This document shows positions 8,139 to 50,998 of a DNA stretch of 64,000 nt, one piece after another. The stretch covers positions 105,408 to 169,407 of the forward strand of contig CAYOLW010000001.1 of the NCBI GenBank assembly GCA_964404925.1, read 5' to 3'. A model generated the notes under the pieces. It ran no database searches, was not told the origin of the DNA, and saw only the letters and a list, made by a program, of their open reading frames with translations. Made by a program: the position numbers and the translations under genes. Positions within the stretch are counted from its first letter, which is position 1, and each line of letters opens with the position of its first letter. Source of the stretch: an uncultured Candidatus Saccharibacteria bacterium. GTDB lineage: Bacteria; Patescibacteriota; Minisyncoccia; Phycocordibacterales; UBA9973.

Positions 8139-9503
8139 ATGATGAAAACACGCAGTCATGCGGGACAGAAATCTTCTGGTCCACGCAAATCTTCTCATGC
8201 TATTGGCGGGGGAAGCTACAGGTTTGGGGGCACTGGTTCAAAACCAGCACCATCAAGACCAGCTTATAAAGGAGGAGGCTCCGCTCATGCGGCTTCTTTT
8301 TCTAGTAGACCAAAACCAAGTTTTAATGTATCTACTCGTCCATTTCGTGGTAAAGGTGGAGCAGGTTTTGGAGGTGGTCGCGGCCGGGGTAAAGCTCGTG
8401 GTGAGCGTATCGACTTTTCTCGCTTTATTCAAAAGGCAGTTTATGTAGAAGAAAAGCCTTACGTTTCAAAGCATACTTTTGCAGACTTTCCCTTTGATGC
8501 TCATTTGAAGAAAAATATTGAAAAGAAGGGTTATGTAAGCCCACGTCCAATTCAAGATCAATCGATTCCTTCTGTTTTAGAGGGTAAGGACGTTTTCGGT
8601 ATGGCAAACACAGGTACAGGTAAAACCGCAGCATTCTTACTGCCGCTTGTAGACAAAGTGATGAAGAATAAAAGCGAGAAAGTTCTCGTACTTGCACCGA
8701 CACGCGAACTGGCTATTCAAATAGAAGAAGAACTACGTTCACTTGCAACTGGTACTGGATTCTACGGAGTATGTGTGGTGGGAGGCATGCCTATTAATAA
8801 ACAGATTAATGAAATAAAACGTGGAGTGTCTTTTGTCATTGGTACTCCAGGACGAGTAACAGACTTGATCAAAAGGAAGATTCTAGATTTATCTAATTAT
8901 AGATCTGTTGTATTAGACGAAGCAGACCGAATGCTTGATATGGGATTCCGTGAAGACATGGTTTCTATATTAGGTAAAATGCATGCAGATAGGCAGACAC
9001 TTTTCTTCTCGGCGACTCTCTCACCTGAGATTAAGAAATTAACAAATGATTTCTTGAAAGACCCAGTATTCATATCCGTTATCAAGGGTGAAACTGCAAA
9101 AAATATTGATCAAGATGTAGTCCGAGTAAAAACCGAACAAAAATTCGACAAGCTTTGCGAAGTCCTAAAGGAAGAAGGCACAGACAAAATTCTAATTTTC
9201 CGGGAAATGAAACACGCTGTAGATACCTTAACCAAAGACTTGCACAAGGCTGGTTTTAAGGTTGGATGTATTCATGGTGATAAACGAAGCCGCGAGAGAT
9301 TGCGAACACTCGACCTATTCAAGAAAGATCAGATCAATATTCTAATCGCTACTGATGTGGCCGCTCGCGGACTTGATATCCCAGACGTGACTCACGTTAT
9401 CAATTACGATGTGCCGCAGACTTACGACACCTATGTGCACCGCATCGGCCGAACCGGACGTGCCGGCAAAAAGGGAACTGCACTAACTTTCGTCCCTGCG
9501 TAA
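8139..9503 (+). CDS. DEAD-box ATP-dependent RNA helicase with a Gly/Arg-rich (RGG-like) N-terminal extension
   Basis: It has the Q-motif, GTGKT (motif I), VLDEADRMLDMGF (motif II), SAT and HRIGRTGRAG (motif VI). The N-terminal ~95 aa are rich in G, R, S and K. Confidence 0.9.
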   Translation: MMKTRSHAGQKSSGPRKSSHAIGGGSYRFGGTGSKPAPSRPAYKGGGSAHAASFSSRPKPSFNVSTRPFRGKGGAGFGGGRGRGKARGERIDFSRFIQKAVYVEEKPYVSKHTFADFPFDAHLKKNIEKKGYVSPRPIQDQSIPSVLEGKDVFGMANTGTGKTAAFLLPLVDKVMKNKSEKVLVLAPTRELAIQIEEELRSLATGTGFYGVCVVGGMPINKQINEIKRGVSFVIGTPGRVTDLIKRKILDLSNYRSVVLDEADRMLDMGFREDMVSILGKMHADRQTLFFSATLSPEIKKLTNDFLKDPVFISVIKGETAKNIDQDVVRVKTEQKFDKLCEVLKEEGTDKILIFREMKHAVDTLTKDLHKAGFKVGCIHGDKRSRERLRTLDLFKKDQINILIATDVAARGLDIPDVTHVINYDVPQTYDTYVHRIGRTGRAGKKGTALTFVPA

Positions 9504-9545
9504 AATTTCATATAATACCAGTATTACCAATTCACATTTTTATAT

Positions 9546-9743
9546 ATGGCAAAAGGAATGGAGAGAGGTTGGGATCCAGGAATGAAGAAACCTAAGCATG
9601 ATACTGGTGGAGTCAAGGTAAATCAAGATGGTAGCCTGGAGGAGAAAAAAAGAATAATGCCTTGTGGTGCACAAGTGGCAGATACCGAAGAAGCTGAATA
9701 CAGTTACAGATCTAACTGTGATAAGTGTACAACATTATTTTAA
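9546..9743 (+). CDS. Small hypothetical Cys-containing protein of 65 aa
   Basis: An ORF with ATG, followed by the rho-independent terminator at 9751-9775. No recognisable family. Confidence 0.4.
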   Translation: MAKGMERGWDPGMKKPKHDTGGVKVNQDGSLEEKKRIMPCGAQVADTEEAEYSYRSNCDKCTTLF

Positions 9744-9750
9744 GTAACTA

Positions 9751-9775
9751 AAAACACCCCTCGGGGTGTTTTTAG
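9751..9775 (+). terminator. Intrinsic terminator (aaaacacccctcggggtgttttt)
   Basis: A perfect GC hairpin plus a T-run. Confidence 0.7.
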
Positions 9776-9817
9776 TTTGACAAATCATGATTATTCATGT
9801 ATATTGATTTTGAATCG

Positions 9818-9846
9818 AAGAACGCACCGTGCGTTCTTTTTTATTG
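9818..9846 (+). terminator. Second tandem intrinsic terminator (gaagaacgcaccgtgcgttcttttttatt)
   Basis: A hairpin plus a T-run located 40 nt after the first terminator. Confidence 0.6.
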
Positions 9847-9871
9847 TTGTACATTTAAAAATTTATTCTCA

Positions 9872-10285
9872 ATGAGGAAAGAAAAGTCCATTTACAACCT
9901 CTCTCCAGGTTGGTTGATGCATCGTTTGACCTTGAAGAAAACATTACAAAACACAGAACTCTTTAATCAGATTTGCATTCTTGTGTCCAGGAGATTGCAA
10001 GAGCGAAAGAGGCATTATAAAAAACCTTTTCCGGATGGAGAGTATAGGTTTTCTGTGTCTTTAAGTGGAACAACTTTTGACGGTTGTATTTTTAAAGAAA
10101 GTTTTGAAGATATTTCATTATTGTCTGGCAACAGGAAACAAATAGCAGTGTTTTTGATTGAAATCCAGGGCAATAATGTGGTGTTTCAGGACTTAGAGTC
10201 AAAAGGTTCAAAACTTAGTCCGATAACATGTAAAGAAATTGGGATAGTGATTCTTAAGCAAATGGGATTTAAAATTTTAAACTAG
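9872..10285 (+). CDS. Hypothetical protein
   Basis: The ORF was re-started at the ATG at 9872, because the longer ORF-track start at 9797 would include the terminator hairpin. No family recognised. Confidence 0.4.
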   Translation: MRKEKSIYNLSPGWLMHRLTLKKTLQNTELFNQICILVSRRLQERKRHYKKPFPDGEYRFSVSLSGTTFDGCIFKESFEDISLLSGNRKQIAVFLIEIQGNNVVFQDLESKGSKLSPITCKEIGIVILKQMGFKILN

Positions 10286-10438
10286 TTCGTCATGGCAAAA
10301 CACTCGCACATTTTTTACTTCACAGGCACAACTAAGCCTGGCATGTTTGGAACCCTAAAATTGTATGCATGTAGCTACCCAGGCTGCAACAAAACCGATT
10401 GGAAATACTATTAGTGTTTAGACCCGCATAAATAACTT

Positions 10439-10473
10439 GGCCGGTGCTCAATCGAGAGCACCGGCCTTTTTAA
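10439..10473 (+). terminator. Intrinsic terminator (ggccggtgctcaatcgagagcaccggcc+ttttt)
   Basis: A 10-bp GC-rich stem plus a T-run. Confidence 0.65.
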
Positions 10474-10490
10474 TTTAATATGAATAGATA

Positions 10491-10522
10491 AAAAAACTCC
10501 GACGTAACGTCGGAGTTTTTTT
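10491..10522 (-). terminator. Bidirectional intrinsic terminator serving rpmB on the minus strand (aaaaaactccgacgtaacgtcggagttttttt)
   Basis: A perfect hairpin flanked by an A-run on one side and a T-run on the other. Confidence 0.7.
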
Positions 10523-10536
10523 ATTGTAAGTTTTAA

Positions 10537-10779
10537 TTATTTGATCAATCCGGCTTTTTTGAGGGTAGGGTAAACTCCGTTTTTCTTGATGGTTTTGAAT
10601 CCTCGAGTAGTAGCTTCAACGATTACAGTTTTGCCTAATTCTGGCACAAACAATCGTTTCTTTTGCAGATTAATATGTTTCCTGACCTTGCCGGTAGGAT
10701 TGAATTTGGTAGCACGGGTTCTGTTTGAATATCCGCCGCCCACTACACTTGTCTTTTTGGTTATTGCACATGTTTTCAT
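10537..10779 (-). CDS. rpmB: 50S ribosomal protein L28
   Basis: MKTCAITKK...GGYSNRTRATKFNPTGKVRK resembles the L28 consensus. Confidence 0.85.
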   Translation of the reverse strand: MKTCAITKKTSVVGGGYSNRTRATKFNPTGKVRKHINLQKKRLFVPELGKTVIVEATTRGFKTIKKNGVYPTLKKAGLIK

Positions 10780-10810
10780 AACAGTGTTTGCATGCTATCA
10801 TAGAATCTAC

Positions 10811-11428
10811 ATGAACGCAATAGATACCATATTCTTCCTGGCCGTACTTATAATGTCAGTGGTTATACACGAAGTCTCTCACGGCTTTATGGCAGAATAC
10901 CTGGGGGACAAGACTGCTCGTTTGGCCGGCCGTTTGACCCTGAACCCTATTCGCCATTTAGACCTATTTGGTTCTGTTATACTACCTGCAATCTTGTATT
11001 TTAGTACTGGTTTTGCCTTTGGTTGGGCGAGGCCTGTACCATATAACCCAGCAAATCTAAGGAATGAAAGGTGGGGTACGGTGGCGGTGGCTGCAGCTGG
11101 GATACTGGCCAATATTTTTATTGCTTTATTTTTTGGATTAATGCTACGGGGTTTATACCCAGGTTACGCATCAGAGAATTTAGTTTCTTTTGTTTCGTCT
11201 ATAGTTTTCGTAAATTTAGCCCTGGCTTTCTTTAACCTGGTGCCGATTCCTCCGCTTGATGGATCTAAGATTCTTTTTGGTATACTGCCATTTCGCTTTT
11301 CTGCTGCCGTAAACGTAATTGAGCGTTACTCTTTGTTTTTGTTAATAGCGTTCATTTTCTTTTTTTCTCAATACTTATCCCCAATTATAATTCATGCTTT
11401 TCAACTAATAACAGGGATTAACCTGTAG
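10811..11428 (+). CDS. Site-2 protease family (peptidase M50) integral membrane zinc metalloprotease
   Basis: It has an HEVSHGF (HExxH) motif in the first TM region and multiple TM helices. The start is the ATG at 10811; the longer ORF-track start overlaps rpmB. Confidence 0.75.
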   Translation: MNAIDTIFFLAVLIMSVVIHEVSHGFMAEYLGDKTARLAGRLTLNPIRHLDLFGSVILPAILYFSTGFAFGWARPVPYNPANLRNERWGTVAVAAAGILANIFIALFFGLMLRGLYPGYASENLVSFVSSIVFVNLALAFFNLVPIPPLDGSKILFGILPFRFSAAVNVIERYSLFLLIAFIFFFSQYLSPIIIHAFQLITGINL

Positions 11429-11537
11429 GCCCAGACTAAAGGGGACTTGCAATTTTTTCTAACCTATAGTAGATTACTTGCGTGCACATAGAGTCCTTGA
11501 GACTCTTTTAATTTACATACACATACACAAACACAGA

Positions 11538-11957
11538 ATGCCAACAATTAATCAATTAGTCAGAAAAAGCCGCAAGGCACCAAAAGGTAAAGACAAGACT
11601 GTGGCTTTAACTCGCGGATTTAACCTGCTTAAGAACAAGCCGGTTTATTACTCTTCACCATTTAAAAGAGGTGTTTGTACCAAAGTTACAACTACCACTC
11701 CAAAAAAGCCTAACTCTGCTCTCCGAAAGATTGCTCGTGTACGATTAACTAACGGTATGGAAGTTACTGCTTATATTCCAGGTGAAGGACACAACCTACA
11801 GGAACACTCAGTGGTTATGCTTCGAGGAGGTCGTGTTAAAGACTTGATTGGAGTACGTTATCACATCGTTCGTGGTGTATTAGATACCCAAGGTGTAGAA
11901 AAACGACGACAAGGACGATCTCTATACGGTAACAAGAAACCAAAAGATAAAAAATAA
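11538..11957 (+). CDS. rpsL: 30S ribosomal protein S12 with a short basic C-terminal tail
   Basis: [10 protein letters not shown]...[10 protein letters not shown]...[14 protein letters not shown] is canonical S12. Confidence 0.95.
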
Positions 11958-12619: not shown

Positions 12620-14770
12620 ATGGAAAGAGATTATCCACTAGAGAAAGTTAGAAATTTCGGGATTATTGCACACATCGATGCTGGTAAGACTACCACTACC
12701 GAGCGCGTGCTTTTTTATACAGGTGTGTCACATAAAATAGGTGAAGTTCACGATGGTGAAACCACTACCGACTGGATGGAACAGGAGCGAGAGAGAGGTA
12801 TCACTATTACCTCCGCTGCGGTAACCTGTTTCTGGACACCAACTTATGCTGCGCCGACAGATAAGAAATTGAAACATCGTTTCAACATCATCGATACTCC
12901 TGGGCACATTGACTTTACTGTTGAGGTAAAGCGTTCACTTCGCGTACTTGACGGTGCGGTTGTTGTGTTTGACGGTGTGGCTGGTGTAGAACCTCAGTCT
13001 GAAACCAACTGGCGTTATGCTGATGAAGCTAATGTTCCACGTATTTGTTTTATCAACAAGCTCGACCGAACAGGCGCGTCCTTTGAACACTCATATAAAA
13101 CGATCTTAGATCGTCTAACCAAAAAAGCAGTTCGTTTACAAATACCTATTGGACTTGAAGATAAACACGAAGGTGTTATTGATCTTTTGAAAATGAAGGC
13201 CTTCTATTTCGAAGGAGATATGGGTAACCAAGTTCTTGAAAAAGATATTCCAGAAGAATACAAAAAAGAAGCAGAAGGTTATCACGCAGAACTTATTGAA
13301 AAGATTGTTGAGCAAGATGATGCTTTAATGACTGAATACCTAGAAGGTATTGTGCCAAGCGCAGATACTCTTAAAAAAGTATTGCGTAAAGCTGTAATTG
13401 CTAACAATATTTTCCCAGTTTTTGCTGGTAGCGCTCTTAAAAACAAGGGAGTGCAGTTAGTGCTTGATGCTGTTGTAGACTACCTACCGGCACCAACTGA
13501 TATTCCACCTATCCCTGGTATTGACCCGAACACAGAAGAACCAACAGTTCGTAAAGCCTCAGATGCAGAACCTTTCTCAGCACTTGCTTTCAAGGTTGCT
13601 ACCGATCCATTCGTAGGACAGATTATTTTCTTCCGAGTATATTCTGGTTCTCTTTCTGCTGGAAGTTATATTTATAACCCCCGAACTAGAAACAAAGAAA
13701 GAATTGGACGTATTCTGCGAATGCACGCTAATGATCGAGAAGAAGTAAAGAAAGTATATGCAGGAGAAATTGCAGCTGCTGTAGGACTTAAAGACACCAT
13801 TACTTCTGATACTATTTGTGATGAAAATGCACCAGTAGAATTGAACAGAATAGTTTTCCCAGAGCCTGTTATTTCTTTGCGTATTGAACCAAAGACAAAA
13901 GCTGACCAAGAAAAAATGGGTATGGCACTTAACCGCCTTGCTCAAGAAGACCCAACCTTTAGAGTTACAACTGATCAAGAAACAGGGGAGACAATCATCG
14001 CAGGTATGGGAGAACTACACCTTGAAATTATCGTTGATCGTCTGAAGCGCGAGTTTACAGTAGAAGCAAATGTTGGTAAGCCACAGGTTGCATACCGAGA
14101 AACTATTAACGGAAACTCTGAAACTGAAGGTAAATACATCAAACAGTCTGGTGGACGTGGTAACTACGGTCATGTGAAGATTAAGGTTAAGCCAATGGTT
14201 GCTTTAACCAAAGAAGAAATCGAAGACCTGCCAAAGAACACCAAGCGATCTGAAGGATTCGAATTCATCAACAGTATCAAAGGAGGTGCTATTCCTCAGG
14301 AATATATTGCCCCTTGTGAAAAAGGCTTCAAAGAAGGACTTGATCGAGGTATCTTGGCTGGATTTAAAATGGTTAATGTTTCAGTAGAACTTTGGGACGG
14401 ATCTTTCCACGAAGTGGACTCCAACGAAATGGCTTTCAAAATCGCAGCTTCTATGGCTATCCAAGATGCATGTCGTGCTGCTCGTCCAGTAATACTTGAA
14501 CCGATGATGAAGGTTGAAGTAGTAACTCCAGATAAATTCATGGGTGATGTTACAGGAAACTTGTCATCTAAACGTGGACTTATCGAAGGTATGGAAGACC
14601 GAGGAATGAATAAGGTTGTTAAGGCTGTAGTACCATTATCTGAAATGTTCGGTTACATGACAGGCTTGCGTTCTATGACCGAAGGACGTGCGTCTTTCAC
14701 AATGGAATTCCTAAGGTATGATATCGTGCCTCAAAACGTAGCTGACACTATAATTGCAGCTAGAAAGTAA
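12620..14770 (+). CDS. fusA: Translation elongation factor G
   Basis: [25 protein letters not shown] and full-length EF-G domains across 716 aa. Confidence 0.95.
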
Positions 14771-14793
14771 TCTTTTAAAAATCTTAAAGATGA

Positions 14794-14817
14794 AAAAAGA
14801 GCCCCAGGCTCTTTTTT
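14794..14817 (+). terminator. Intrinsic terminator (aaaaaagagccccaggctctttttt)
   Basis: A hairpin plus a T-run immediately after the fusA stop codon. Confidence 0.7.
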
Positions 14818-14818
14818 C

Positions 14819-16366
14819 ATGTATGCTATAATCAACAATATGTTAGAAAAAATAAAAAGTTTTATAATTCGTAAGAAATTACTAGTGCTTGTTGTTGTAG
14901 TTTTGCTGGTTGCTGGTTATTTCGTTTTAAACGAAAACAACACTTCAAACTATGCTTTTATAACACCAACCAAAGGCACCTTGACTCGCACAGTACGAGC
15001 AACTGGTCAGGTGGTATCAGCTGTGGACTTGGACCTTTCTTTTTCAAAGTCTGGTTTTGTTAGTCTGGTTAAAGTAGCTGTGGGGGATAAGGTTAAAAAA
15101 GGTGATGTATTGCTTAGCCTAGATGCGGGTGGTGATTTGGCTAATGTAACTAAAGCCCGAGCAGCCTTGCTGGGGGCTGAAGCTAAGCTCAAGAAGACAA
15201 TTGACGGAGCTTCAAATGAAGAAATTTCTCTGGCACGAGTTAATTTAGAAAACGCTAAACAAGATTTAATTAACACAAAAAATACACAAAACACTCTTGT
15301 ATCAAATGCTTATAGTAAACTGCTGAACTCTACTCCAGAGGCATTGCCTGGAGGTTCTCAGAGTACTACCGTTATAGCACCAACCATTAGTGGTACTTAT
15401 AATCTATCTAAAGAATCATCAATCAATATCAATATTTACACTACTGGCAACGGTTTGATGTTTTCTACTAGTGGTGCTGTTGCAAGTGAGGGGGTTGTTA
15501 GCACTACCACACCGCAACCCATAGGTAATTCTGGTCTATACATTCTATTTTCTTCAACATCTAATATTAGTAACTCTAATTGGGTGCTTAATTTTCCCAA
15601 CAAAAAAGCAGCTGATTACCTCACCAATGAAAATGTATATCAATCTGCGTTAAATACCAAAGAAGCAGCTATATCTAGTGCGCAGTCTTTGGTAAATCAG
15701 CGTGAAGCAGAACTTAATCTGAAGCTAGCTGCGGCCCGTGATGCAGATATAGATTTGGCCAAGGCAGATGTCCTGTCTGCTCAAGGTGGGTTAGAACAAG
15801 CACAAAATACTTATAGCGATAATATAATTAAAGCTCCAGCTAACGGAACTATTACAAAGCTTGATACAAAGTATGGTGAATTGGCTACTTCAAACTCACC
15901 AGTTATCACTCTTGAAGACATTGATAATTTGTACGTTGAAGCTTTAATCAATGAATCAAATATTTCTGAAATAGCGCTTAATCAATCTGTGAGTGTTGTT
16001 TTTGATGCTTTGCCTGGCCAACAATTTACAGGCACTGTGTACCACATCGACCCTTCTTCTCTGACTTCTGATGGGGTAGTGAACTACAAAATTAAAGTTT
16101 TATTGAATGACAAGAACCCAAACATACGATCTGGCATGAATGCTGAAATTGCCATTACAATTAAAAGTAAAGAAAACGTACTTTCAATACCTGAGGCTTC
16201 TATCAAAAACGTAGATGGTAAAAAATTTGTTGATGTTGCGACTGGAAAAGATAAAAGTGATTTAACCCAAACAGAGATTGTAACCGGTGAAAGCGGTGAC
16301 GGTAATATGATTGAAGTAGTGTCTGGTTTGACTGAGGACGCTAGCATAGCAATTGTCGAAAAATAA
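14819..16366 (+). CDS. Efflux transporter periplasmic adaptor (HlyD/MacA-like membrane fusion protein) with a long Ser/Thr/Asn-rich insertion
   Basis: It has an N-terminal TM helix, a biotinyl/lipoyl-like hairpin (VKVAVGDKVKKGDVLLSLD), coiled-coil stretches and a C-terminal beta-barrel. It is followed by the MacB-like permease and ATPase. Confidence 0.75.
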   Translation: MYAIINNMLEKIKSFIIRKKLLVLVVVVLLVAGYFVLNENNTSNYAFITPTKGTLTRTVRATGQVVSAVDLDLSFSKSGFVSLVKVAVGDKVKKGDVLLSLDAGGDLANVTKARAALLGAEAKLKKTIDGASNEEISLARVNLENAKQDLINTKNTQNTLVSNAYSKLLNSTPEALPGGSQSTTVIAPTISGTYNLSKESSININIYTTGNGLMFSTSGAVASEGVVSTTTPQPIGNSGLYILFSSTSNISNSNWVLNFPNKKAADYLTNENVYQSALNTKEAAISSAQSLVNQREAELNLKLAAARDADIDLAKADVLSAQGGLEQAQNTYSDNIIKAPANGTITKLDTKYGELATSNSPVITLEDIDNLYVEALINESNISEIALNQSVSVVFDALPGQQFTGTVYHIDPSSLTSDGVVNYKIKVLLNDKNPNIRSGMNAEIAITIKSKENVLSIPEASIKNVDGKKFVDVATGKDKSDLTQTEIVTGESGDGNMIEVVSGLTEDASIAIVEK

Positions 16367-17637
16367 TGTCATTAAATACTAAAAATTCTTTTAAAAGAAA
16401 TGTCCGAGTTGGTTGGTTTCTAGCTAGACGTGAGTTAAAACGTGCCAATATATGGACCACCACCCTTATTGTAGCGGTGATGACCTTAACCTTTCTGAAT
16501 TTGGTTGTAGTTTCAGGTATTCTGATTGGGCTTATTCAAGGTTCTGAAGATGCACAGAAGAAATACGCTATTGGTGATATCATCATTTCTCCTTTCTTGA
16601 GTCGTACTACAATTCTACAAACTCCCGAAGTTGAAAGCATTGTAAAAACAATCCCAGGTTATAGAAATCATACTGTACGGTATGCGGGCTCAGCTAGGGT
16701 AGAGGACACCTATCGTGAGACCACCAAACCTGGTGAGAAGAAGGGTGGAGCAGGCGCACCTATTTTAGGTATTGATCCAAAAGAAGAAGATAAATTTTCT
16801 GGAGTTTCTAAATTTGTTCTGCGTGGTGAGTACTTGGACGAGAACGATGCAGACAGTATTCTGATTGGTAAGAATTTTCTTTATGAATTTACCCCGATTG
16901 ATGCACCTGGATTTGAGAGTTTGAAAAACACTGATGTTGGTTCTAGAGTAAAACTCACTTCTGGAAATTTAGAAAAAGAATATTTCGTCAAAGGTATTCT
17001 AAGTTCTAAAGTAGATACTTTTGACTTTTCGGTAGTGATGCTTGCCAGCGAAGCCAGAAAGTTATCAAATCAAACTGATTTAAACGCAGGTTCAATAGCA
17101 ATACAATTACAACCAGGCGTTGACCCAAATGTAGCAAAACAATTCTTGTTAGACAGTGGAGTGGGGGATTGGGCTCGAGTACAGACGGCTGAAGAAGCTT
17201 TCCCTAAATTCTTGAAAGATATTAAAGCAACTTTCGGTATATTGGGTTCAGCTATATCTGGTATTGGTTTGGTTGTAGCATCTATCACAATATTTATTGT
17301 TATATTCGTGAACGCGATAACTCGCCGAAGGTATATTGGTATATTGAAAGGTATCGGTATTAACAAGCAAGCCATATTGTTTTCCTATATGTATCAGGCA
17401 ACCATCTATGCTTCGCTTGGTATCTTGTTCGGTATGGTCTTAACTTTTGGATTAATCAAACCTTATTTCACTGAAAATCCGATAGACTTCCCATTCTCAG
17501 ATGGAATTTTAGTAGCCACTCTGTCTGGAACTATGACTCGTGCTTTTATCCTACTTATAACCACCATGATTGCCGGTTATATACCAGCTAGAATCGTTAT
17601 TAAACAAAACACATTATCAGCAATCTTAGGAAGATAA
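16366..17637 (+). CDS. ABC transporter permease (FtsX/MacB-like)
   Basis: It has an N-terminal TM helix, a large periplasmic domain and C-terminal 3-TM FtsX-like helices. It overlaps the adaptor gene stop codon. Confidence 0.75.
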   Translation: MSLNTKNSFKRNVRVGWFLARRELKRANIWTTTLIVAVMTLTFLNLVVVSGILIGLIQGSEDAQKKYAIGDIIISPFLSRTTILQTPEVESIVKTIPGYRNHTVRYAGSARVEDTYRETTKPGEKKGGAGAPILGIDPKEEDKFSGVSKFVLRGEYLDENDADSILIGKNFLYEFTPIDAPGFESLKNTDVGSRVKLTSGNLEKEYFVKGILSSKVDTFDFSVVMLASEARKLSNQTDLNAGSIAIQLQPGVDPNVAKQFLLDSGVGDWARVQTAEEAFPKFLKDIKATFGILGSAISGIGLVVASITIFIVIFVNAITRRRYIGILKGIGINKQAILFSYMYQATIYASLGILFGMVLTFGLIKPYFTENPIDFPFSDGILVATLSGTMTRAFILLITTMIAGYIPARIVIKQNTLSAILGR

Positions 17638-17639
17638 AA

Positions 17640-18317
17640 ATGATTCAAATTAAAAATCTAACGAAAATATTTCAAAGTGGAGATGCTGAGATTATTGCTT
17701 TAAACAATCTTACTTTTTCTGTACCAGAAGGGCAGTTCCTGACAGTTACTGGCAAATCAGGTAGTGGTAAATCAACCTTGCTTTATCAGCTTGGGCTACT
17801 TGATTTACCAACCTCTGGAGATGTGTATATAGACGGTATTGAATACACTAAACTTGATGAGAATTCTCGCACACTGTCGCGTTTAAATGACCTGGGGTAT
17901 ATATTCCAAGACTATGCTATTTTGCCTTCACTCACGGCGCTTGAGAACACAATGCTGCCACTCCTCATGCAGGGGTACGATATGAAAGAATCAGAAGAAA
18001 AGGCGAAAAAGGCACTAGACAAGGTTGGATTGCTTGACCGTATGAATAATTTGCCTTCGGCCCTATCCGGAGGTCAGCAGCAGCGTGTATCTATTGCACG
18101 AGCGATATCGCACGAGCCGAAAATTATCTTTGCTGATGAACCAACAGCGAACCTGGACTCTGAGACATCCAAGCACGTCATTGATGCTTTTGTAAAATTA
18201 AACCAAGAAGGGCAGACCATAATTATGGTAACCCACGAAGAAGAATATGCCCGCCTGGCACACCGCACCATCACCATGGCTGATGGAAGTATTGTTTCTG
18301 ATACAATGAACCGCTAA
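17640..18317 (+). CDS. ABC transporter ATP-binding protein (MacB/LolD-like)
   Basis: GKSGSGKST (Walker A), LSGGQQQRVSIARA (ABC signature) and IIFADEPTANLD (Walker B). Confidence 0.9.
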   Translation: MIQIKNLTKIFQSGDAEIIALNNLTFSVPEGQFLTVTGKSGSGKSTLLYQLGLLDLPTSGDVYIDGIEYTKLDENSRTLSRLNDLGYIFQDYAILPSLTALENTMLPLLMQGYDMKESEEKAKKALDKVGLLDRMNNLPSALSGGQQQRVSIARAISHEPKIIFADEPTANLDSETSKHVIDAFVKLNQEGQTIIMVTHEEEYARLAHRTITMADGSIVSDTMNR

Positions 18318-18332
18318 GCCCATAGGCTAAAT

Positions 18333-19133
18333 CTATTTAGAAATATTGCAGACAACAGCCATGTGGTCGCTGACTCCGTCTTTTAATACAACGTTTGTTA
18401 CTGTGTAAGTAGGAGTAGTAAAAACCACATCTACCATGAGAGGTAAAGATCCGGCTCTGTGTAAAGACCCATCAATGCTTGTTTTGTAGATTTCTGGAAT
18501 ATTATCCTTTAATTTTTCAGCAAACAAAGCAAAGTTCTTCTGCCCTCGGGGGCAATTAGTGTCTGCACAGAAAACAAATTCACCCATATTGGAAAATATT
18601 TCGAGGAGTCTTGTTGCATCCTCAGATTGTTGTGTTGTTGAAGGTTCATCTATATCCCAAACAAATTCGTCCGTTACCTGGTTCATGTATCCATAATATG
18701 CCCAAGTGAAGTGTGTATTCGCGAAAACAAATTCTTCTTCACCTTTATTTATTTTTACAAAAAGAACTTTTCTGGCGTATTGTGAATTTGCACTATTTTT
18801 GTTTTCTTTTTTCTCTGAATGTGTTTTTGTCTCTATTGGATCTAGGCTTGCAATCTGGTTTGTATAAGGGATAGATTCGTGAGATAAAATGGGGCAGCGT
18901 GATAGTACGGCTACTCCTTGGTTGTGTACTGCACCACCAGCGTCTTTAAATATTAACTGGGAGTCAAATACTCCTGTTAAGTTAAGTTCCTTAGTCAGTA
19001 ATTCAAAATCAGGTTGGAAAATTTCTTGAAGGCAGATCACATCAGGATCCTCGTTTTTTAGAAAAGATAAAACCGCTGGGATGTGTTTATTTGTTTGAAT
19101 GTTTAAAGAAACTAGTTTTAAATTTGTGGACAT
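18333..19133 (-). CDS. Endonuclease/exonuclease/phosphatase (EEP) family protein
   Basis: VSLNIQ...VICLQEI at the N-terminus and DHMAV at the C-terminus are typical EEP fold motifs. Confidence 0.7.
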   Translation of the reverse strand: MSTNLKLVSLNIQTNKHIPAVLSFLKNEDPDVICLQEIFQPDFELLTKELNLTGVFDSQLIFKDAGGAVHNQGVAVLSRCPILSHESIPYTNQIASLDPIETKTHSEKKENKNSANSQYARKVLFVKINKGEEEFVFANTHFTWAYYGYMNQVTDEFVWDIDEPSTTQQSEDATRLLEIFSNMGEFVFCADTNCPRGQKNFALFAEKLKDNIPEIYKTSIDGSLHRAGSLPLMVDVVFTTPTYTVTNVVLKDGVSDHMAVVCNISK

Positions 19134-19365
19134 TAGATATGATTTTATACCATCCAGTACTGTTTAATCAAATTGCGCACTAAGATTAATCTATGCCCAA
19201 GACGAACCAAATCATTTTTCTAACTACCAAAGCACCGTCGAGCCGCGCGGGGACTGCATTGAGGTTTTAAACACCTCACAATTCTTCGCCGGTGAATTCG
19301 GTGGTAATAACGGTACGGCATCAATCTGTTTTGAGTTTCCATCTACTTGTGGAGCAGAGATCCAC

Positions 19366-20616
19366 TTGAACAGTAACCACGTAGTTGATTTCTTGCAATT
19401 TACAAGAGAAGACGGAACTAAATCAGGAATTATTGGGGTTGGTAAATCCGATTTTAACCCAATTGAAAATTTGGTCGTTGGTGAAGTTACCATATTTCCT
19501 TTTAATTTTTCGTCAGCCAGAGTATTCCAAGGACCAATTCAAGTAGATGTTTCAGAAGACGGGTTTATTGTTGAAAAACTTGCAGACGGTGCAGTGGGGG
19601 ACATGTTTGTAAATGCTGACCTGTATAATTTCACTGCTACAGTTTTATCAAACCAGTCTAATTTCACAAATTGGTCGGTGGAATGCAAACCAGTAAATAT
19701 CTGTTTAGATTATCAGTCCGTTCAGTATGCCGTTGCCTGTCCTGGCGAAGACCTTTTTCTCGTGTCCAAATGTTACGATCAAGATTATAAAACCACATGG
19801 TTAAATCCGTACGGTGATACCATTATCTGTGACAAAGACACGCTTAGAGTCAATAACCCAGTTCCGGTAGGTTTGTATCAATGGATAACCCCATGCAATA
19901 AGGGGTATGTATTGGTCTACCATCCAGACTCAATCCGTATAGAGGCGAAACAAGTTTTTTGTTCGTCAAAACAAAAACTTTTTCTGCCTACGGGGCTAAA
20001 AGGCGATTGGTCTAGCAGCGCTAAAAACGTTAATTACATTTATGTTAGTCAGCCTGGATGGTATTTTGTCACAGTTTCCGATTGCCTTATTGATTCTATT
20101 TTTGCGGAACCACAGTATAAGGCTATTGATCTCGAATTAAACTTTGCGCCGAACGTTGACACTTTATTGTTCAATAAAGAACTAGATATCTCTGTCGATG
20201 CAATTAGTAATGTAAATATTATGTGGTACAAAGATGGCAGTCCCGTTGGAGGCTATCTCAGAAGACCAGGCCTGTACACTATTATTGGTACATTGGATGA
20301 ATGCCGAGAGTATGACACTCTTCTCATGATCCCGCATTTGTTTTCTGAATGCGATTGGGATGTCTATAAACCTAATGTTTTTTCCCCAAATGATGACGGG
20401 GACAATGATCTGTTTCAGGTATTTGGACCCGACGGATCAGTTTCAGAAATATGGGTTTATAACAGGTGGGGAGGGTTAATATACTCTGGCCATGCTTGGG
20501 ACGGTACTTGTGGTGGTAAAGAGCTTCAACCCGATGTATATACATTTCGTGCTCATGTTGTTTGGAAATTCGAAGAGTGTAATAAAATCTACGGAGACGT
20601 TACCCTGATTAGGTGA
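19366..20616 (+). CDS. Cys-rich protein with a C-terminal T9SS type-B sorting / gliding-motility C-terminal domain (CHU_C-like). The N-terminus is undefined: no in-frame ATG or GTG and no signal peptide were found.
   Basis: The C-terminal ~80 aa read YKPNVFSPNDDGDNDLFQVFGPDGSV.EIWVYNRWGGLIYSGHAWDGTCGGKELQPDVYTF...GDVTLIR, which matches the PN.F.PN.DG.ND.F...I.NRWG.L...WDG...GK.L....Y consensus. The open frame extends upstream to 19168 without a canonical start. Confidence 0.6.
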   Translation: MNSNHVVDFLQFTREDGTKSGIIGVGKSDFNPIENLVVGEVTIFPFNFSSARVFQGPIQVDVSEDGFIVEKLADGAVGDMFVNADLYNFTATVLSNQSNFTNWSVECKPVNICLDYQSVQYAVACPGEDLFLVSKCYDQDYKTTWLNPYGDTIICDKDTLRVNNPVPVGLYQWITPCNKGYVLVYHPDSIRIEAKQVFCSSKQKLFLPTGLKGDWSSSAKNVNYIYVSQPGWYFVTVSDCLIDSIFAEPQYKAIDLELNFAPNVDTLLFNKELDISVDAISNVNIMWYKDGSPVGGYLRRPGLYTIIGTLDECREYDTLLMIPHLFSECDWDVYKPNVFSPNDDGDNDLFQVFGPDGSVSEIWVYNRWGGLIYSGHAWDGTCGGKELQPDVYTFRAHVVWKFEECNKIYGDVTLIR

Positions 20617-20647
20617 CAAAAAAAGAAAAAATGGAACCAATAACTTA

Positions 20648-20694
20648 GGCCCGGTACGCGCAGATCAATCATTGCGTATCGGGCCTTTAAATTT
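20648..20694 (+). terminator. Long hairpin terminator (ggcccggtacgc...gcgtatcgggcc + T-rich tail)
   Basis: An inverted repeat plus tttaaatttt downstream of the 19366-20616 gene. Confidence 0.5.
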
Positions 20695-21510
20695 TCCCAT
20701 ATGTCCGATAGGAAAGCGGGGTTATGTCCTTTATGTGTTTTATTTATTCTTGGCAAATATCAATGTTCGGGAAAGATTCGGAAAAAGCTTTTTTTAAAGC
20801 CTCTTTATGACTCATACTTCGAGAATTGTGTATTGCCTTGTCTTTAAAAGAATCTAAGGCTTCCATAAAGGTATCATCTTCTAGGGTTGGTGGCATTAAC
20901 TTTTTTTCAAATTTTTGTTCATTCATAGATTAATTATATACCTATAAAAAATTTTTGCGACATTACAAAAAAACTATAAGTTCTTGTTTTTCCGCTCAAA
21001 TGTACTATAGTGAGCGAAATAATTCATTGAAATAAAATAACATATCTCATCTCATGGACAATAAAAGCGCTCAGTACTGGCTTCCGGTGATCCTGCTAGA
21101 TCTAAGGAAGCCCGAGAACATGGACAAGGGGAGAGAATTTTTCTCCGAATATGCCAAAAAATACGTTCTTCCGATTAGTGTTCAGTACGCTACTCTAAAA
21201 CATAGAAATATGTTGAAAGAACGATTTTTTGTGACACTTGGCCCAATTCGGCATATTTTCGAACGCACAGTCACCTCAATGCTTTTTTCTTTTCACGTAA
21301 GTGAGTGGGAAAAAGTCTCATCTTAAATTTTTAGTGTATGCTCAATTCTAAAAAGAAAAAAAGGCGCATCTGGCTTATACAGTTATTGGTATGGGCAGGC
21401 AGGATTGCAAATCCCAAAAAACGTAAAAAAACACAGCAAAACATCATTCAAAAAATCCATCCACCAAAAACAGACTAAAATGCTTATTTCATAAAAACAT
21501 TTTTCACCAT

Positions 21511-21546
21511 AAACCCCCGGACTTAAAACTCCGGGGTGTATTTTTT
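21511..21546 (+). terminator. Intrinsic terminator (aaacccccggacttaaaactccggggtgtatttttt)
   Basis: A GC stem plus a T-run upstream of the tuf promoter. Confidence 0.65.
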
Positions 21547-21558
21547 AGGGTAGTGTGT

Positions 21559-21586
21559 TTGACATTAAAAATTTATCTGCTAATAT
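21559..21586 (+). promoter_or_regulatory. Strong sigma70-like promoter for tuf (TTGACA -16- TAATAT with an extended -10 TGCTAATAT)
   Basis: The sequence is TTGACATTAAAAATTTATCTGCTAATATGAG. The ATCTGCTAATAT motif recurs upstream of rpsS and ndk. Confidence 0.65.
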
Positions 21587-21730
21587 GAGTGGCAACTGCA
21601 CTTTCGCAGTTTTTTCGTTGCTAATTTATAAATTATTAATAATTCTTTAGTAATCGAGCCTTAGTAAATTCTCGTATACCAAGTCTCAGTTATTAAAACC
21701 ACCCGACGCCAGAGGCGCGGGAAAAATCAT

Positions 21731-22924
21731 ATGGCAGAAGAATTTAAAAGAGATAAGCCACACGTAAACGTAGGTACCATCGGTCACGTTGACCATGGAA
21801 AGACCACTTTAACTGCGGCTATTTTGAATTGTCTTAATTTGGCAGGTAACACTGTTCGAATGAAGAGTGTTGACCAAATCGACGGTGCTCCAGAAGAAAA
21901 AGCTCGTGGTATCACCATTAACATTTCCCACAACGAGTACGAAACAGCTGCTCGCCACTATGCTCACATTGATGCTCCTGGTCACGCTGACTACATCAAG
22001 AACATGATCACCGGTGCTGCTCAGATGGACGGTGCTATCCTTGTGGTGGCTGCTACTGACGGTGCTATGCCTCAGACTCGTGAACACGTTCTTTTGGCAA
22101 AACAAGTTGGTGTGCCAAAAATCATTGTTTTCCTTAACAAATGTGACATGGTTGACGACAAAGACATGATCGACCTTGTTGAAGAAGAAATCCGTGAACT
22201 CCTTACAAAACAAGGCTTTGATGGTGCAGCTTGCCCGGTTATCCGTGGTTCTGCTCTTAAGGGTCTTGAAGCTTCAGACGCTTCAGATGAATGGGCAAAG
22301 AAGATTCTTGAACTTACAAATGCTCTTGATACTTACATCCCAGTTCCAGAACGCGATACTGCAAAGCCATTCTTGATGCCTGTAGAAGACATCTTCTCAA
22401 TCGAAGGCCGCGGTACAGTTGTTACTGGTAAAATCGAAAGAGGTATCGTAAAGGTTGGTGAAGAAATCGAAATCGTGGGTGTTAAAGCAACTGCGAAGAC
22501 CACTGTTACTGGTATTGAAATGTTCAACAAGAACCTTCAAGAAGGTATGGCTGGAGACAACGCTGGTATATTGCTACGAGGTCTTAAGAAAGACGACATC
22601 ACTCGAGGACAGGTTCTTGCAAAGCCAGGTACTGTTACTCCTCATGATAGCTTTACTGCTGAAGTTTACGTTCTAAAGAAGGAAGAGGGAGGTCGTCACA
22701 CACCATTCTTCAAGGGTTACAAGCCTCAATTCTACATCCGAACCACTGACGTAACTGGAGAAGTTGTACTAGAAGAAGGCACAGAAATGGTTATGCCAGG
22801 AGATACAGTTAAGATAACTGTAACATTGGTTACTCCAGTTGCCCTAGAAGAACAACAGAGATTTGCTATCCGAGAAGGAGGTAAGACTGTAGGTGCTGGT
22901 GTTGTAACAAAGATATTGAAATAA
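21731..22924 (+). CDS. tuf: Translation elongation factor Tu
   Basis: [26 protein letters not shown] and full-length EF-Tu across 397 aa. Confidence 0.97.
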
Positions 22925-31059: not shown

Positions 31060-31614
31060 ATGGATAAAAGAGAAGGAAAAAAAAATAATCACAAATCATC
31101 CTTTGCTAGACCAAAGCCTGAGTTCGATCAGAAGATTGTAAGTATCAGACGTGTAACTCGTGTTGTGGCTGGTGGACGACGTTTCTCATTTTCAGTTGCA
31201 CTAGTTGCAGGGGACAGGAAAGGTGCTGTGGGCTTGGGCTTGGGTAAAGCAGGTGATACTTCTCTGGCTATTAACAAAGCTTTAAGAGACGCTAAGAAAA
31301 GAATGGTTAAACTTAGCTTGAACAAGAACCAATCTATTCCTCACCAAGTTTTTGCTAAATTCGGAAGTTCTAAGGTTATGATTATGCCGAATAAAGGTAA
31401 AGGTTTAGTGGCTGGTACTGTTGTTCGCGACATTTTGAAGTTAGCTGGTGTAAAAGATGCAACTGCTAAAGTTCTCGGCGGAACCAAGAATCGACTAAAC
31501 AACTCTAAGGCAGTTATGGCAGCTTTGTCTGAAATATCCAGTCCCTACCAAAAAGTTACCAAATTACCTGAGGATAGTATTAAAACACTAGCTCAGAGTG
31601 AAGCAAATAATTAA
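31060..31614 (+). CDS. rpsE: 30S ribosomal protein S5
   Basis: IRRVTRVVAGGRRFSFSVALVAGD..G.VG.G.GKA matches S5. Confidence 0.95.
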   Translation: MDKREGKKNNHKSSFARPKPEFDQKIVSIRRVTRVVAGGRRFSFSVALVAGDRKGAVGLGLGKAGDTSLAINKALRDAKKRMVKLSLNKNQSIPHQVFAKFGSSKVMIMPNKGKGLVAGTVVRDILKLAGVKDATAKVLGGTKNRLNNSKAVMAALSEISSPYQKVTKLPEDSIKTLAQSEANN

Positions 31615-31626
31615 TTTTGAAGTGTC

Positions 31627-31932
31627 ATGCAAATCAATACATTAAAACGAGTACATAAGAACAGAAAAGACCGAGTAATCGGTCGTGGTGGTAAACACGC
31701 TAAAACATCTGGACGTGGAGGTAAAGGTCAGACTGCTCGTGCTGGTAACAAGAGACGACCAGAGTTACGTGATATAATTAAGAAGCTGCCAAAGCTTCGA
31801 GGTTATGCTTTTAATTCTCGAATTAAAGCCGTAGAAATAAAAGAAAAAGACCTAGCTAAAAAAGACGAAAAATTCAGCGAGATTCGCAAGCGAACAGGCA
31901 TGAAGGGTGGCAAGATTGTTATCAGGAAGTAA
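31627..31932 (+). CDS. rplO: 50S ribosomal protein L15, short form of 101 aa. There is no L30 gene between rpsE and rplO.
   Basis: It has the Gly/Arg-rich N-terminus (GRGGKHAKTSGRGGKGQTARAG) of L15, but the C-terminal half is truncated. The gap to rpsE is 12 nt. Confidence 0.85.
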   Translation: MQINTLKRVHKNRKDRVIGRGGKHAKTSGRGGKGQTARAGNKRRPELRDIIKKLPKLRGYAFNSRIKAVEIKEKDLAKKDEKFSEIRKRTGMKGGKIVIRK

Positions 31933-33204
31933 ATGCAAAATTTTTGGAATAAAATTAAATTAGTTTGGGTTGATAAGGGTCTACGATCTAGGGTTTTTGC
32001 TGTGTTAGGTTTTTTAATTATATTCCGTTTATTAGCAGCTATTCCAATTCCAGGAGTAGACACAGCTGCCTTAAATAGATTTTTGAACAATAACCAGTTT
32101 TTCGGAATATTAAACCTTTTCTCTGGTGGTGGATTATCTAACCTTTCAATAATTATGCTTGGTGTTGGTCCATATATTACTGGATCTATCATTATGCAGC
32201 TTCTCACTATTATGGTTCCTTCGCTAAAGCGTATGTACCAAGAAGAAGGCGAACTAGGACGCCGGAAGTTTACTCAATATTCAAGGCTTCTTACTGTGCC
32301 GCTAGCTATTATTCAGGGTTACAGTCTACTCACTGTATTGGGTTCACAAGGTATTTTAGTAGACCTGACTGCTTTCGAAAAAATAGTTAACCTGATTATC
32401 GTTGTTGCTGGTTCTATTCTAATAATGTGGATTGGAGAATTGATGTCAGAGTTCGGTATCGGTAATGGTCTATCTATGATAATCTTTGCAGGTATTGTTT
32501 CTCAAATCCCTACAGAGATCGGTCAATTAGTTTATACTTTTGATGTTTCCCAGATCCCACTATACATTGCCTTTGCTGTTGTCGGTATATTGGTTGTAGC
32601 TGGAGTGGTTGTGGTTACTGAGGCTGAACGACCTATACCAGTCACATACGCTAAAAGAGTTCGTGGTAATAAAGTTTATGGAGGAGGTTCTACCTATCTA
32701 CCACTACGTGTAAACCAGGCTGGAGTTATACCAATTATTTTCGCACTTTCAATATTACTGTTCCCAACCATGATTGGTAATGCATTGTCTGGGGCAACCA
32801 ATCCATTTGTTGCTAAAGTCGCTACTGCATTAGCTAACTTCTCACAAACATCAGTACTTTATGGTGTACTATACTTCGTGCTAGTTTTCTTGTTTACATA
32901 TTTTTATACTGCTGTTACCTTTGATCCACACGCATTGGCTGAGAACCTACAGAAAAATGGTGCATTTATTCCAGGTATCAGACCAGGTGTTTCAACTGAA
33001 ACTTATATTTCAAAAGTGCTAGGACGTATTACTCTACTCGGTGCACTCTTCCTCGGATTTATCGCTGTTTTACCTATAATTATGCAGAGTATCACTGGTA
33101 TTACAGCTTTAGCACTTGGTGGTACAGCTTTACTTATCGTCGTGTCTGTATTACTTGATTTGATTAAAAAGGTTGATGCTCAGGTATCAATGCGAGAATA
33201 CTAA
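31933..33204 (+). CDS. secY: Preprotein translocase subunit SecY
   Basis: A 423-aa protein with 10 TM helices. It follows rplO directly, as in the spc operon. Confidence 0.95.
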   Translation: MQNFWNKIKLVWVDKGLRSRVFAVLGFLIIFRLLAAIPIPGVDTAALNRFLNNNQFFGILNLFSGGGLSNLSIIMLGVGPYITGSIIMQLLTIMVPSLKRMYQEEGELGRRKFTQYSRLLTVPLAIIQGYSLLTVLGSQGILVDLTAFEKIVNLIIVVAGSILIMWIGELMSEFGIGNGLSMIIFAGIVSQIPTEIGQLVYTFDVSQIPLYIAFAVVGILVVAGVVVVTEAERPIPVTYAKRVRGNKVYGGGSTYLPLRVNQAGVIPIIFALSILLFPTMIGNALSGATNPFVAKVATALANFSQTSVLYGVLYFVLVFLFTYFYTAVTFDPHALAENLQKNGAFIPGIRPGVSTETYISKVLGRITLLGALFLGFIAVLPIIMQSITGITALALGGTALLIVVSVLLDLIKKVDAQVSMREY

Positions 33205-45583: not shown

Positions 45584-46342
45584 CTAGCTCATTTCCTGAA
45601 TAATTTGATCCATCATGAGTGCTGCCGGGAGGCGAGCGACATCAAGCGGTACAAAGTAATCTCCTTCAACCTTGCTTGCGTCCGCTGATACGGATATACC
45701 TGCAGCATCAATCATTTCTTTATCATTTAGATTGTCTCCAATAGCCAGCACTTCACCCTCGGCCAAGCCCAGGTAGTTCCTGTATGCAGAGAGGCCCACT
45801 GCTTTGTTCTGAATTCCTTTGACCCCGATGTCATATGCTTCGCCGTTCCAGATGGCATACAGGCGGTCATTCTCGGCGACGATGTTTTCAATCTCTGGGA
45901 CTCTATCTGTACAATGGATGGTGATTATTAATTCTTTGGGTTCAAAGCCTTTCACGTTTTCGTGTCTGGACTCGATGCCGCGTAATTTCAAAAAAGTTTC
46001 TTGCAAATGGTCAAAGCTGTTCACGTGCTGGATTATTTCTCCGCGGTGCCAGGTGGCGCTGCCGTTCTCGTATGTGAGACTGGTAAAGGGAAGTATGTCT
46101 CGGAAAACTTCTTGCAGCATATACAACCCGCGTCCAGAATTGATATTGATCATGAACCCTAGTTCTTTTAATTTCTTGATCTGCTCAATCTGCTCGGGGG
46201 CGATGTGTTTCGTCTCGAGTGTTGTAATGTTATTTGATTGTTTTATATTCGTTCCACGGGGGACCAATACTCCATCTACATCGAAAACTATTAGTTTAAT
46301 ATTTTTCAAAACATCCTTCGTTAGTTCCTCAATTGGTTTCAT
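45584..46342 (-). CDS. HAD-IIB (Cof-like) hydrolase
   Basis: LIVFDVDGVL (motif I) and GDNLNDKEM (motif IV) are present. Confidence 0.7.
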   Translation of the reverse strand: MKPIEELTKDVLKNIKLIVFDVDGVLVPRGTNIKQSNNITTLETKHIAPEQIEQIKKLKELGFMININSGRGLYMLQEVFRDILPFTSLTYENGSATWHRGEIIQHVNSFDHLQETFLKLRGIESRHENVKGFEPKELIITIHCTDRVPEIENIVAENDRLYAIWNGEAYDIGVKGIQNKAVGLSAYRNYLGLAEGEVLAIGDNLNDKEMIDAAGISVSADASKVEGDYFVPLDVARLPAALMMDQIIQEMS

Positions 46343-46376
46343 GAGTTAATTCTAAGCTTTTTATTCCTAGCGTCAA

Positions 46377-47570: not shown

Positions 47571-47574
47571 ATTT

Positions 47575-49517: not shown

Positions 49518-49532
49518 AACGCCTAAATCTTA

Positions 49533-50933: not shown

Positions 50934-50998
50934 AATTGCTATTCTAACATTTTTAAGATTAAAAAATAAGTCTAAAAATGGTATAATTAGGTGTATAA

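Follow-up and report, generated by a model that had tools for sequence, protein, structure and literature searches.

A type-B sorting-domain protein family in a candidate phyla radiation clade, with a copy that has probably lost its 5' end

Here we describe a gene whose product ends in a type-B C-terminal domain (CTD) of type IX secretion systems (T9SS). It lies on the plus strand of a 64-kb stretch of contig CAYOLW010000001.1 (assembly GCA_964404925.1), and this whole stretch is called the window below. The genome is of candidate phyla radiation (CPR) type. By sequence and fold definition the window protein is a type-B CTD protein, and the window copy is probably a recently beheaded gene from a family of such proteins in a CPR clade, with a body that has not yet decayed. 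An intact member of the family, of ~480-507 residues, consists of a Sec signal peptide, Gln, an N-terminal all-beta domain, about three immunoglobulin (Ig)-like modules and the type-B CTD. The window copy appears to have lost its start codon and the signal peptide's n- and h-regions, or to carry them frameshifted, and therefore could not use the normal export route. Ig modules, CTD and signal peptide style were all most likely gained from Bacteroidota, long enough ago for the divergence found within the clade (28-67% identity).

The protein and its family

The C-terminal domain had been recognised in an earlier examination of the DNA (hereafter the sequence-only reading), which proposed a search with the type-B profile, and the search bore this out with scores above the curated cut-offs. 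NCBIfam TIGR04131 (T9SS type B sorting domain) matches residues 402-482 with 42 bits (E 7.6e-11; cut-off 35 bits), spanning positions 4-85 of the 85 in the profile and finishing at the last residue of the protein, while Pfam PF13585 (CHU_C) matches residues 402-461 with 35.8 bits (E 9.2e-9; cut-off 27 bits). In a 40-sequence alignment with Bacteroidota-type proteins, 16 columns of the domain are invariant or nearly so, and the window protein keeps every one of them (P402, F405, P407, N408, D410, G411, N413, D414, R433, W434, G435, W444, D445, G446, G476 and L480). The motifs typical of the last ~100 residues of such proteins (PN.FSPN.DG.ND.F, RWG, WDG, G.Y and a terminal G.v.l.R) are present. 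The CTD is also the most conserved part of the protein. Against the closest homologue, P0002, nonsynonymous divergence (pN) is 0.14 in the CTD and 0.23-0.29 elsewhere, and within the family the mean identity is 43.8% for the CTD versus ~37% for the rest. Structure prediction gave residues 400-482 a predicted local distance difference test (pLDDT) score above 90 in model 1 and of 76-91 in model 2, with four long strands. We found no second CTD-bearing open reading frame (ORF) in the window.

The rest of the protein had been described as Cys-rich, and there are indeed 16 Cys among its 482 residues. AlphaFold2, run with an alignment of family members only, produced an all-beta Ig-like array with a mean pLDDT of 78.6; the N-terminal domain was modelled with strands only, at pLDDT ~80-87. 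The signature C...W...G.Y.V...C..D, repeated along the Ig-like modules, is common to Bacteroidota proteins called 'gliding motility-associated'. A sequence search of the PDB with the window protein gave no match to any chain. Judging from this architecture, intact members look like adhesins that would be exported by Sec, cleaved before the Gln and displayed as disulfide-stabilised Ig-like arrays.

The nearest relative of the window protein, P0002 (488 aa), shares 67% identity with it at a query coverage of 99%. Its gene lies on a contig of 151 kb from GCA_018062425.1 ('Candidatus Paceibacterota bacterium' isolate Gw_Eff_bin_313; loci L001/L008), a metagenome-assembled genome, and was additionally found on contigs of five further samples; the farther named homologues are from Bacteroidota. 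The automatic NCBI annotation of P0002 is 'gliding motility-associated C-terminal domain-containing protein'. Ca. Paceibacterota corresponds to the phylum Minisyncoccota, kingdom Bacillati, in the NCBI taxonomy. About nine sequence clusters of the family were found in all, only in CPR-type contexts, with identities of 28-67% and at least three genomic locations.

When the N-terminal 171 residues were compared by HMMER with 1.84 billion representative sequences, only P0001 (the gene-caller product of the window gene), P0091, P0092, P0093 and P0095 were recovered as family clusters, besides one unrelated repeat protein; P0002, at 67% identity, would fall within the cluster of P0001 in this set. 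These five clusters, of 461-507 aa, share one architecture end to end (N-terminal domain, Ig modules and CTD). In a profile search of 5.8 billion proteins, the family scored E 1e-107 or better and all other proteins 1e-32 or worse, the non-family homologues aligning only to the C-terminal 17-64% of the query. The named ones among them belong to Saprospiraceae, Chitinophagales, Saprospirales, Aureispira and Bacteroidia/Bacteroidota. Because of this score gap, and because non-family matches are confined to the C-terminal part, the N-terminal domain is, as far as sequence comparison goes, private to the family, with the Ig modules and the CTD common to Bacteroidota. Neither the HMMER nor the profile search found the N-terminal domain in a Bacteroidota-labelled protein. 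A scan of genome contigs for relatives returned the sister genome and one Parvicellaceae CTD only; a first metagenome scan gave no matches, and a second gave generic CTD matches only, which were used as controls.

Each of the other five full-length members has an ATG start and a hydrophobic signal peptide with Gln at +1, and their TIGR04131 scores are 38.9-55.4 bits, so that the CTD is kept in six of six. With a slash marking cleavage sites, which were predicted by eye, the signal peptide of P0002 reads MKKLNLTLAFLVAVDCISA/QD (junction ISA/QD) and that of the member at locus L013 reads MKAHYYFFLFFFSFIFSNLFS/QM (junction LFS/QM); the full ORF of the latter occupies 8737-10188, and its database gene call, P0092, was shortened. 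The signal peptides of P0091, P0093 and P0095 end in CFTAWS/QN, YAHASA/QD and QNAYS/QT, respectively.

The 5' end of the window copy

As had been noted from the sequence, the reading frame is open back to 19168, and neither ATG nor GTG occurs in it ahead of its first start-like codon, the TTG from which the gene caller derived the 416-aa P0001. A TAA at 19165-19167 closes it on the upstream side, and it runs for 482 codons to a TGA at 20614-20616. Its first codons, SNCALRLIYA/QDEP, are the tail of a signal peptide only, and the complete signal peptide is absent. This remnant (junction IYA/QD) aligns in frame with the AVDCISA/QD of P0002 and, in four other members, with the stretch around the cleavage site. 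Since the five other full-length members all keep their ATG and signal peptide, the absence of both is, by this comparison, a lesion of the window copy and not a property of the family. The earlier description of a protein with neither start codon nor signal peptide thus holds for this copy, not for the protein in general.

Across the whole gene, pN against the orthologue P0002 is 0.24, compared with a synonymous divergence (pS) of 0.76, at which synonymous sites are saturated; on this evidence, the lineage of the gene has been under purifying selection. We found no plus-strand promoter-like site upstream of the CTD frame. A weak consensus promoter-like site on the minus strand (19171-19142) overlaps the head of the frame and faces a divergent Exo_endo_phos (EEP) family gene, whose ATG lies 34 nt from the opening of the frame. 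A MAFFT alignment of the 5' ends at the DNA level, which paired the ATG of L001 with a TTG at 19124 and left a gap of 2 nt, was rejected in favour of the in-frame protein alignment, which fits better.

Some observations weigh against a beheaded gene. Its 482-codon body is free of internal stops and frameshifts, and relative-rate tests gave an excess of changes in the window lineage that is not significant (38 vs 26, with p = 0.13, 24 vs 14 and 29 vs 19; p 0.10-0.15 in all). With an intact body and no significant rate excess, the inactivation is inferred from the missing head alone, and the missing head may in turn reflect a sequencing error of one base within 19165-19181 or a real but weak signal peptide. 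The idea of a decaying pseudogene, raised by the sequence-only reading, is therefore plausible at the 5' end and does not extend to the rest of the gene.

The main alternative, which we regard as unlikely, is that the gene is intact and its product exported, with ATG 19139 as the true start and a frameshift that is either a one-base assembly error or bypassed. This ATG opens a short ORF in the adjacent frame, and one base added anywhere in 19165-19181 would join it to the main frame, giving the presequence MILYHPVLFNQNCALRLIYA/Q of 20 residues, a fitting length next to the 19 of P0002; the intact remainder of the gene and the non-significant rate acceleration agree with this view. However, a k-mer based assembly of the sequencing run SRR12762285 is identical in sequence, and the repaired presequence is a poor signal peptide. 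It lacks a basic n-region, and H, P, N, Q and R interrupt its hydrophobic core; its best 9-residue hydrophobicity is 1.66 versus 2.5-3.5 in five intact relatives. Besides, ATG 19139 is only 5 nt from the start codon of the divergent EEP gene. Programmed -1 frameshifting from the ATG 19139 frame into the main frame was considered as a bypass and rejected, since the slippery X XXY YYZ heptamer is absent from the overlap (19168-19183). If the gene has been beheaded, as we favour, ATG 19139 may be a relic of the original start codon.

It is much less probable still that TTG 19366 is a genuine start and that the product is a 416-residue cytoplasmic protein without a signal peptide. Gene callers did select this codon, a GGAG lies 11 nt upstream, and P0002 has a Met aligned with it. 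Nevertheless, the 66 codons that precede it are conserved at the protein level (pN 0.27 and pS 0.68 against P0002), and for this reason the TTG start is most likely an annotation artefact. Of the well-defined genes in the window, 35 were checked, and every one starts with ATG, mostly after an A/T-rich leader and with essentially no Shine-Dalgarno sequence; none of the clear genes of this genome uses TTG, and the A/T-rich leader is absent before TTG 19366. Starting there would also cut the predicted N-terminal beta domain, and no cytoplasmic role is known for a CTD protein of this Cys-rich, Ig-like kind. The window copy is chiefly an annotation lesson, that of a probably 5'-truncated gene given a TTG start that is most likely false.

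Bacteroidota-type features and the search for a secretion system

A Gln directly after the signal peptide cleavage site, known as the Q-rule, has been reported as specific to Bacteroidetes and absent from the rest of the Fibrobacteres-Chlorobi-Bacteroidetes (FCB) group (PMC5837995). In the loci studied here it is not a general feature of exported proteins, as others lack Gln at +1 (for example SATA/YE and AEA/ST). At L013, the gene adjoining the family member in the same slot between fusA and tuf (10318-11757) encodes a 479-aa protein with a T9SS type-A CTD, scoring 38.3 bits with TIGR04183 (cut-off 23) and 35.3 bits with PF18962 Por_Secre_tail (cut-off 27); its signal peptide ends in LLNA/QQ. 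This protein is an orphan whose nearest relatives are ~23% identical, one of them labelled Bacteroidia. As L013 has type-A and type-B CTD proteins, T9SS tags of both classes are encoded in one CPR-type genome. In L001, the region 8164-9941 holds two further secreted or anchored products: a 282-aa Cys-rich protein with weak EGF-like matches and a C-terminal membrane anchor, and a 127-aa secreted protein without a family match whose signal peptide has a Bacteroidetes-style end, SASA/QN.

Among the reported gene donors to Patescibacteria, Bacteroidota are relatively frequent (PMC12455944). Signal peptide style, Ig modules and CTD are most likely acquisitions from Bacteroidota, and the secreted proteins of these loci point to a set of Bacteroidota ancestry in the clade. 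Horizontal acquisition, one of the options offered by the sequence-only reading, is in this sense supported by the homologues and by the Q-rule; as a recent, one-off event it is not, since the family is clade-specific and occupies at least three locations.

No T9SS component family matched among the ~60 ORFs of the window, and the Pfam tables precomputed for L001, L010, L011 and L013 contain none. The same is true of PF11751, which was found neither downstream of the CTD gene nor among the scanned window ORFs and is not recorded for those four loci. Type-B CTD substrates are known or predicted adhesins, and their CTD binds a cognate PorP/SprF shuttle that is often encoded directly downstream (PMC12618676). 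We built a PorP/SprF hidden Markov model from four control loci in which a type-B CTD gene is followed by this gene at a distance of 3-125 nt. The model had no match in 148.6 kb of CPR-type loci and nine further matches in the other control loci, which is suggestive of T9SS absence, not conclusive. Even in Flavobacterium johnsoniae, some type-B substrates are orphans (PMC12618676). A literature search for links between T9SS or CTDs and CPR/Patescibacteria found nothing relevant.

To our knowledge, CPR cells have no outer membrane and no T9SS; for this reason the CTD would not be a T9SS transit signal in its producer, where it presumably serves as a binding or anchoring module. T9SS itself has been described in the FCB superphylum only, and it works across the outer membrane (PMC11205867, PMC10202324).

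Another view is that the T9SS tags represent host-directed mimicry by a Paceibacterota clade living on Bacteroidota hosts, which we hold to be rather improbable. In one version, the CTDs (type-B, and type-A in L013) would dock on the PorP/SprF shuttles or anchors and on PorV at the outer membrane of the host; in another, the T9SS of the host would handle the tagged adhesins. Mimicry would explain why the CTD is the most conserved part, why Q-rule signal peptides are kept and why Bacteroidota-style secreted proteins gather in one slot. If it were true, the hosts on which these CPR bacteria live would be indicated by the CTD sequences.

We consider it very unlikely that the producer has a T9SS-like or other sorting or anchoring system for which the CTD is a working signal. 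The conservation of the CTD in all six full-length members, the signal peptides of the five others and the type-A CTD protein in the same slot of one relative would suit such a system, and it is only the window copy that, lacking a signal peptide, fails this feature of T9SS substrates. The empty searches for T9SS families (~60 window ORFs and the tables of four related loci) and for PorP/SprF (148.6 kb) speak against it, as does the need of T9SS for an outer membrane.

The ancestry and secretion parts of our reading have their own weak points. The Bacteroidota origin is drawn from homologue distribution and the Q-rule; the absence of T9SS refers to 64 kb of the window genome and ~85 kb of its relatives; and the adjacency test is weak, as PorP/SprF lay directly downstream in only four of 20 control loci by a crude test. 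Moreover, the clade label Paceibacterota is that of the sister genome (GCA_018062425.1) and not the window's own.

Genomic slot, neighbouring features and comparison with known systems

The gene lies between efflux genes and tuf in a CPR-like core, where the sequence-only reading had placed it, with the EEP gene between it and the HlyD/FtsX/ABC operon (Table 1). The ribosomal operon of the window (31060-33204) has S5, a short L15 of 101 aa and SecY, and lacks L30, whose absence is a hallmark of CPR. The gene order around the CTD gene is shared by Paceibacterota relatives. In L001 this order is EF-G, HlyD-like protein, FtsX, ABC ATPase, variable genes, CTD protein, EF-Tu, S10, L3 and L4, and an orthologue occupies the slot defined by fusA, efflux genes, tuf and S10 in L001/L008 and in L013-L015 (P0092), each from several independent samples. 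EF-Tu is 95.2% identical to that of the window in L001 and 92.2% in L013. At the nucleotide level, the window and L001 are 82% identical in the ABC genes, 91% in tuf and 66.6% in the CTD gene.

Table 1. Coordinates of the CTD gene, its parts and its flanks in the window
Feature	Position	Strand	Basis or remark
MacAB-like left flank: HlyD-like membrane fusion protein, FtsX permease, ABC ATPase	14819..18317	+	Pfam; syntenic in L001 and L013
Exo_endo_phos (EEP) family gene, divergent from the CTD gene	18333..19133	-	Pfam PF03372, 44 bits
Short ATG-initiated ORF MILYHPVLFNQIAH (then stop), adjacent frame	19139..19183	+	Possible relic of the original start
Whole open frame	19168..20616	+	Window copy of the CPR-clade family of type-B-CTD, adhesin-like proteins
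Signal peptide remnant SNCALRLIYA (c-region to predicted cleavage site)	19168..19197	+	Gln next, 19198-19200
Family-specific N-terminal all-beta domain, ~residues 23-175; conserved Cys30, Cys54, Cys61	19234..19692	+	HMMER, AlphaFold2
Putative false TTG start	19366..19368	+	66 conserved upstream codons; lacks the genome's usual leader
About three Ig-like beta-sandwich modules, residues 185-395	19720..20352	+	Repeated C...W...G.Y.V...C..D signature
T9SS type-B CTD (CHU_C / TIGR04131), ending in GDVTLIR	20353..20613	+	Profile scores above cut-offs
Window-only 897-nt stretch between CTD gene and tuf promoter block	20655..21551	.	blastn against L001
tuf (EF-Tu), followed by the S10 ribosomal operon	21731..22924	+	Right flank, conserved

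The EEP gene is absent in L001, which has the 282-aa and 127-aa genes on the plus strand instead; tblastn found no remnants of these two in the window. On the other side, blastn blocks against L001 stop at 20654 and restart at 21552, the L001 counterpart of the interval being 66 nt long, and a promoter-like TTGACA-16-TAATAT precedes tuf at 21559-21586. In three related genomes, the gene sits in a variable slot reaching from the MacAB-like efflux operon to tuf, and in the window this slot was probably remodelled recently: an inverted EEP gene now lies against the 5' end of the gene, which would account for the missing start codon and signal peptide.

That the segment is a Bacteroidota fragment, brought into a CPR bin by contamination or misassembly, is hardly credible: although the CTD and Q-rule signal peptides are Bacteroidota hallmarks (PMC5837995), the identical slot recurs in three related genomes and many independent samples, the N-terminal domain was not found in Bacteroidota-labelled proteins, the locus, at 0.38-0.40, does not differ in GC content from the rest of the window, and a second assembly, the Logan assembly of SRR12762285 (L007), is 100% identical to window positions 17131-21632 (4502 nt, gap-free) across the junctions on both sides of the gene. 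The chimeric contig that had been suspected is accordingly refuted at the level of the sequence data.

Elsewhere in the clade the family occupies other places. P0091 (L010) is located beside pilM/pilO/pilB-type genes and P0093 (L011) is surrounded by housekeeping genes on a contig of 423 kb. Three neighbour genes in L010 (7416-11485), encoding a 165-aa protein, a phosphoribosyltransferase and PilM, are syntenic with and 52-61% identical to those at the right end of the window (62184-64000), where two tRNA-Ser genes occupy the position held by P0091. Because P0091 sits beside genes from the window's right end, the family has either moved or exists as paralogues in the clade. No conserved partner gene emerged, as the 521-, 527- and 517-aa neighbours in L010/L011 are mutually dissimilar and have no Pfam or NCBIfam match.

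Other features of the window were recorded as well. Its str operon (S12, S7, EF-G and EF-Tu; 12620-22924, with fusA at 12620-14770) is split between fusA and tuf by the MacAB-like efflux operon and then by the slot that differs among the window, L001 and L013. The window-only stretch includes a terminator-like hairpin (21515-21536) and two ORFs that have no Pfam match, one of 60 aa (minus strand, 20744-20926) and one of 90 aa (plus strand, 21054-21326). Farther away, a region of low GC content (46000-54900; 0.30-0.33 versus 0.36-0.42 elsewhere) encodes an M78 peptidase with DUF4411, a KAP-family NTPase, a DUF2806-NUDIX protein and a serine recombinase (52844-54490), whose gene overlaps the 3' side of the transfer-messenger RNA gene (54419-54812), with smpB adjoining (54832-55281). 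This island looks like a mobile element integrated at ssrA and carrying defence-like genes. A 928-aa protein (35985-38771) has weak matches to TrwB/TraG-type coupling proteins and HerA-like ATPases, which suggests a possible conjugation-like or DNA-translocation ATPase in a small CPR genome. ARAGORN predicted a tRNA-Ser with the unusual anticodon ACT (61611-61698, minus strand), divergent and beside a tRNA-Ser(GCT), and a tRNA-Ile with anticodon TAT (57721-57795, minus strand).

T9SS CTDs are usually treated as markers of a Bacteroidota/FCB secretion system, and here a family bearing one is native to a CPR clade. CTD matches alone should therefore not be counted as evidence of T9SS, or of contamination, in CPR bins. 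At the same time, a conserved surface module of Bacteroidota type provides a testable lead to a host or partner of Paceibacteria.

The closest known counterparts are the type-B CTD substrates of Bacteroidota, such as SprB and Fjoh_3952 of F. johnsoniae and proteins from Saprospiraceae and Chitinophagales, which have the same CTD, with the same consensus residues and at the same extreme C-terminal place. The likeness extends to Ig-like modules with the C...W...G.Y.V...C..D signature in an all-beta, adhesin-like architecture (PMC12618676) and, in the intact relatives, to the Gln at +1 after the signal peptide. The differences are that the family belongs to Paceibacterota/Minisyncoccota, a phylum without a described T9SS or outer membrane; that no PorP/SprF gene lies downstream or within the 148.6 kb; that the N-terminal domain is found in the family only; and that its members, at ~490 aa, are shorter than the 550-890 aa typical of the Bacteroidota matches. 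The window copy differs further in having neither a start codon nor a signal peptide. T9SS type-A CTD proteins (TIGR04183 / Por_Secre_tail) find their likeness in the 479-aa neighbour at L013 and not in the window. As for GhpA of Aureispira (PDB 9g8b and 9flp), a grappling-hook protein of Bacteroidota built as an Ig array, the resemblance to the window model is one of generic Ig fold only, with TM-scores of 0.18-0.23, and eukaryotic Ig adhesion molecules score as well as GhpA against this model.

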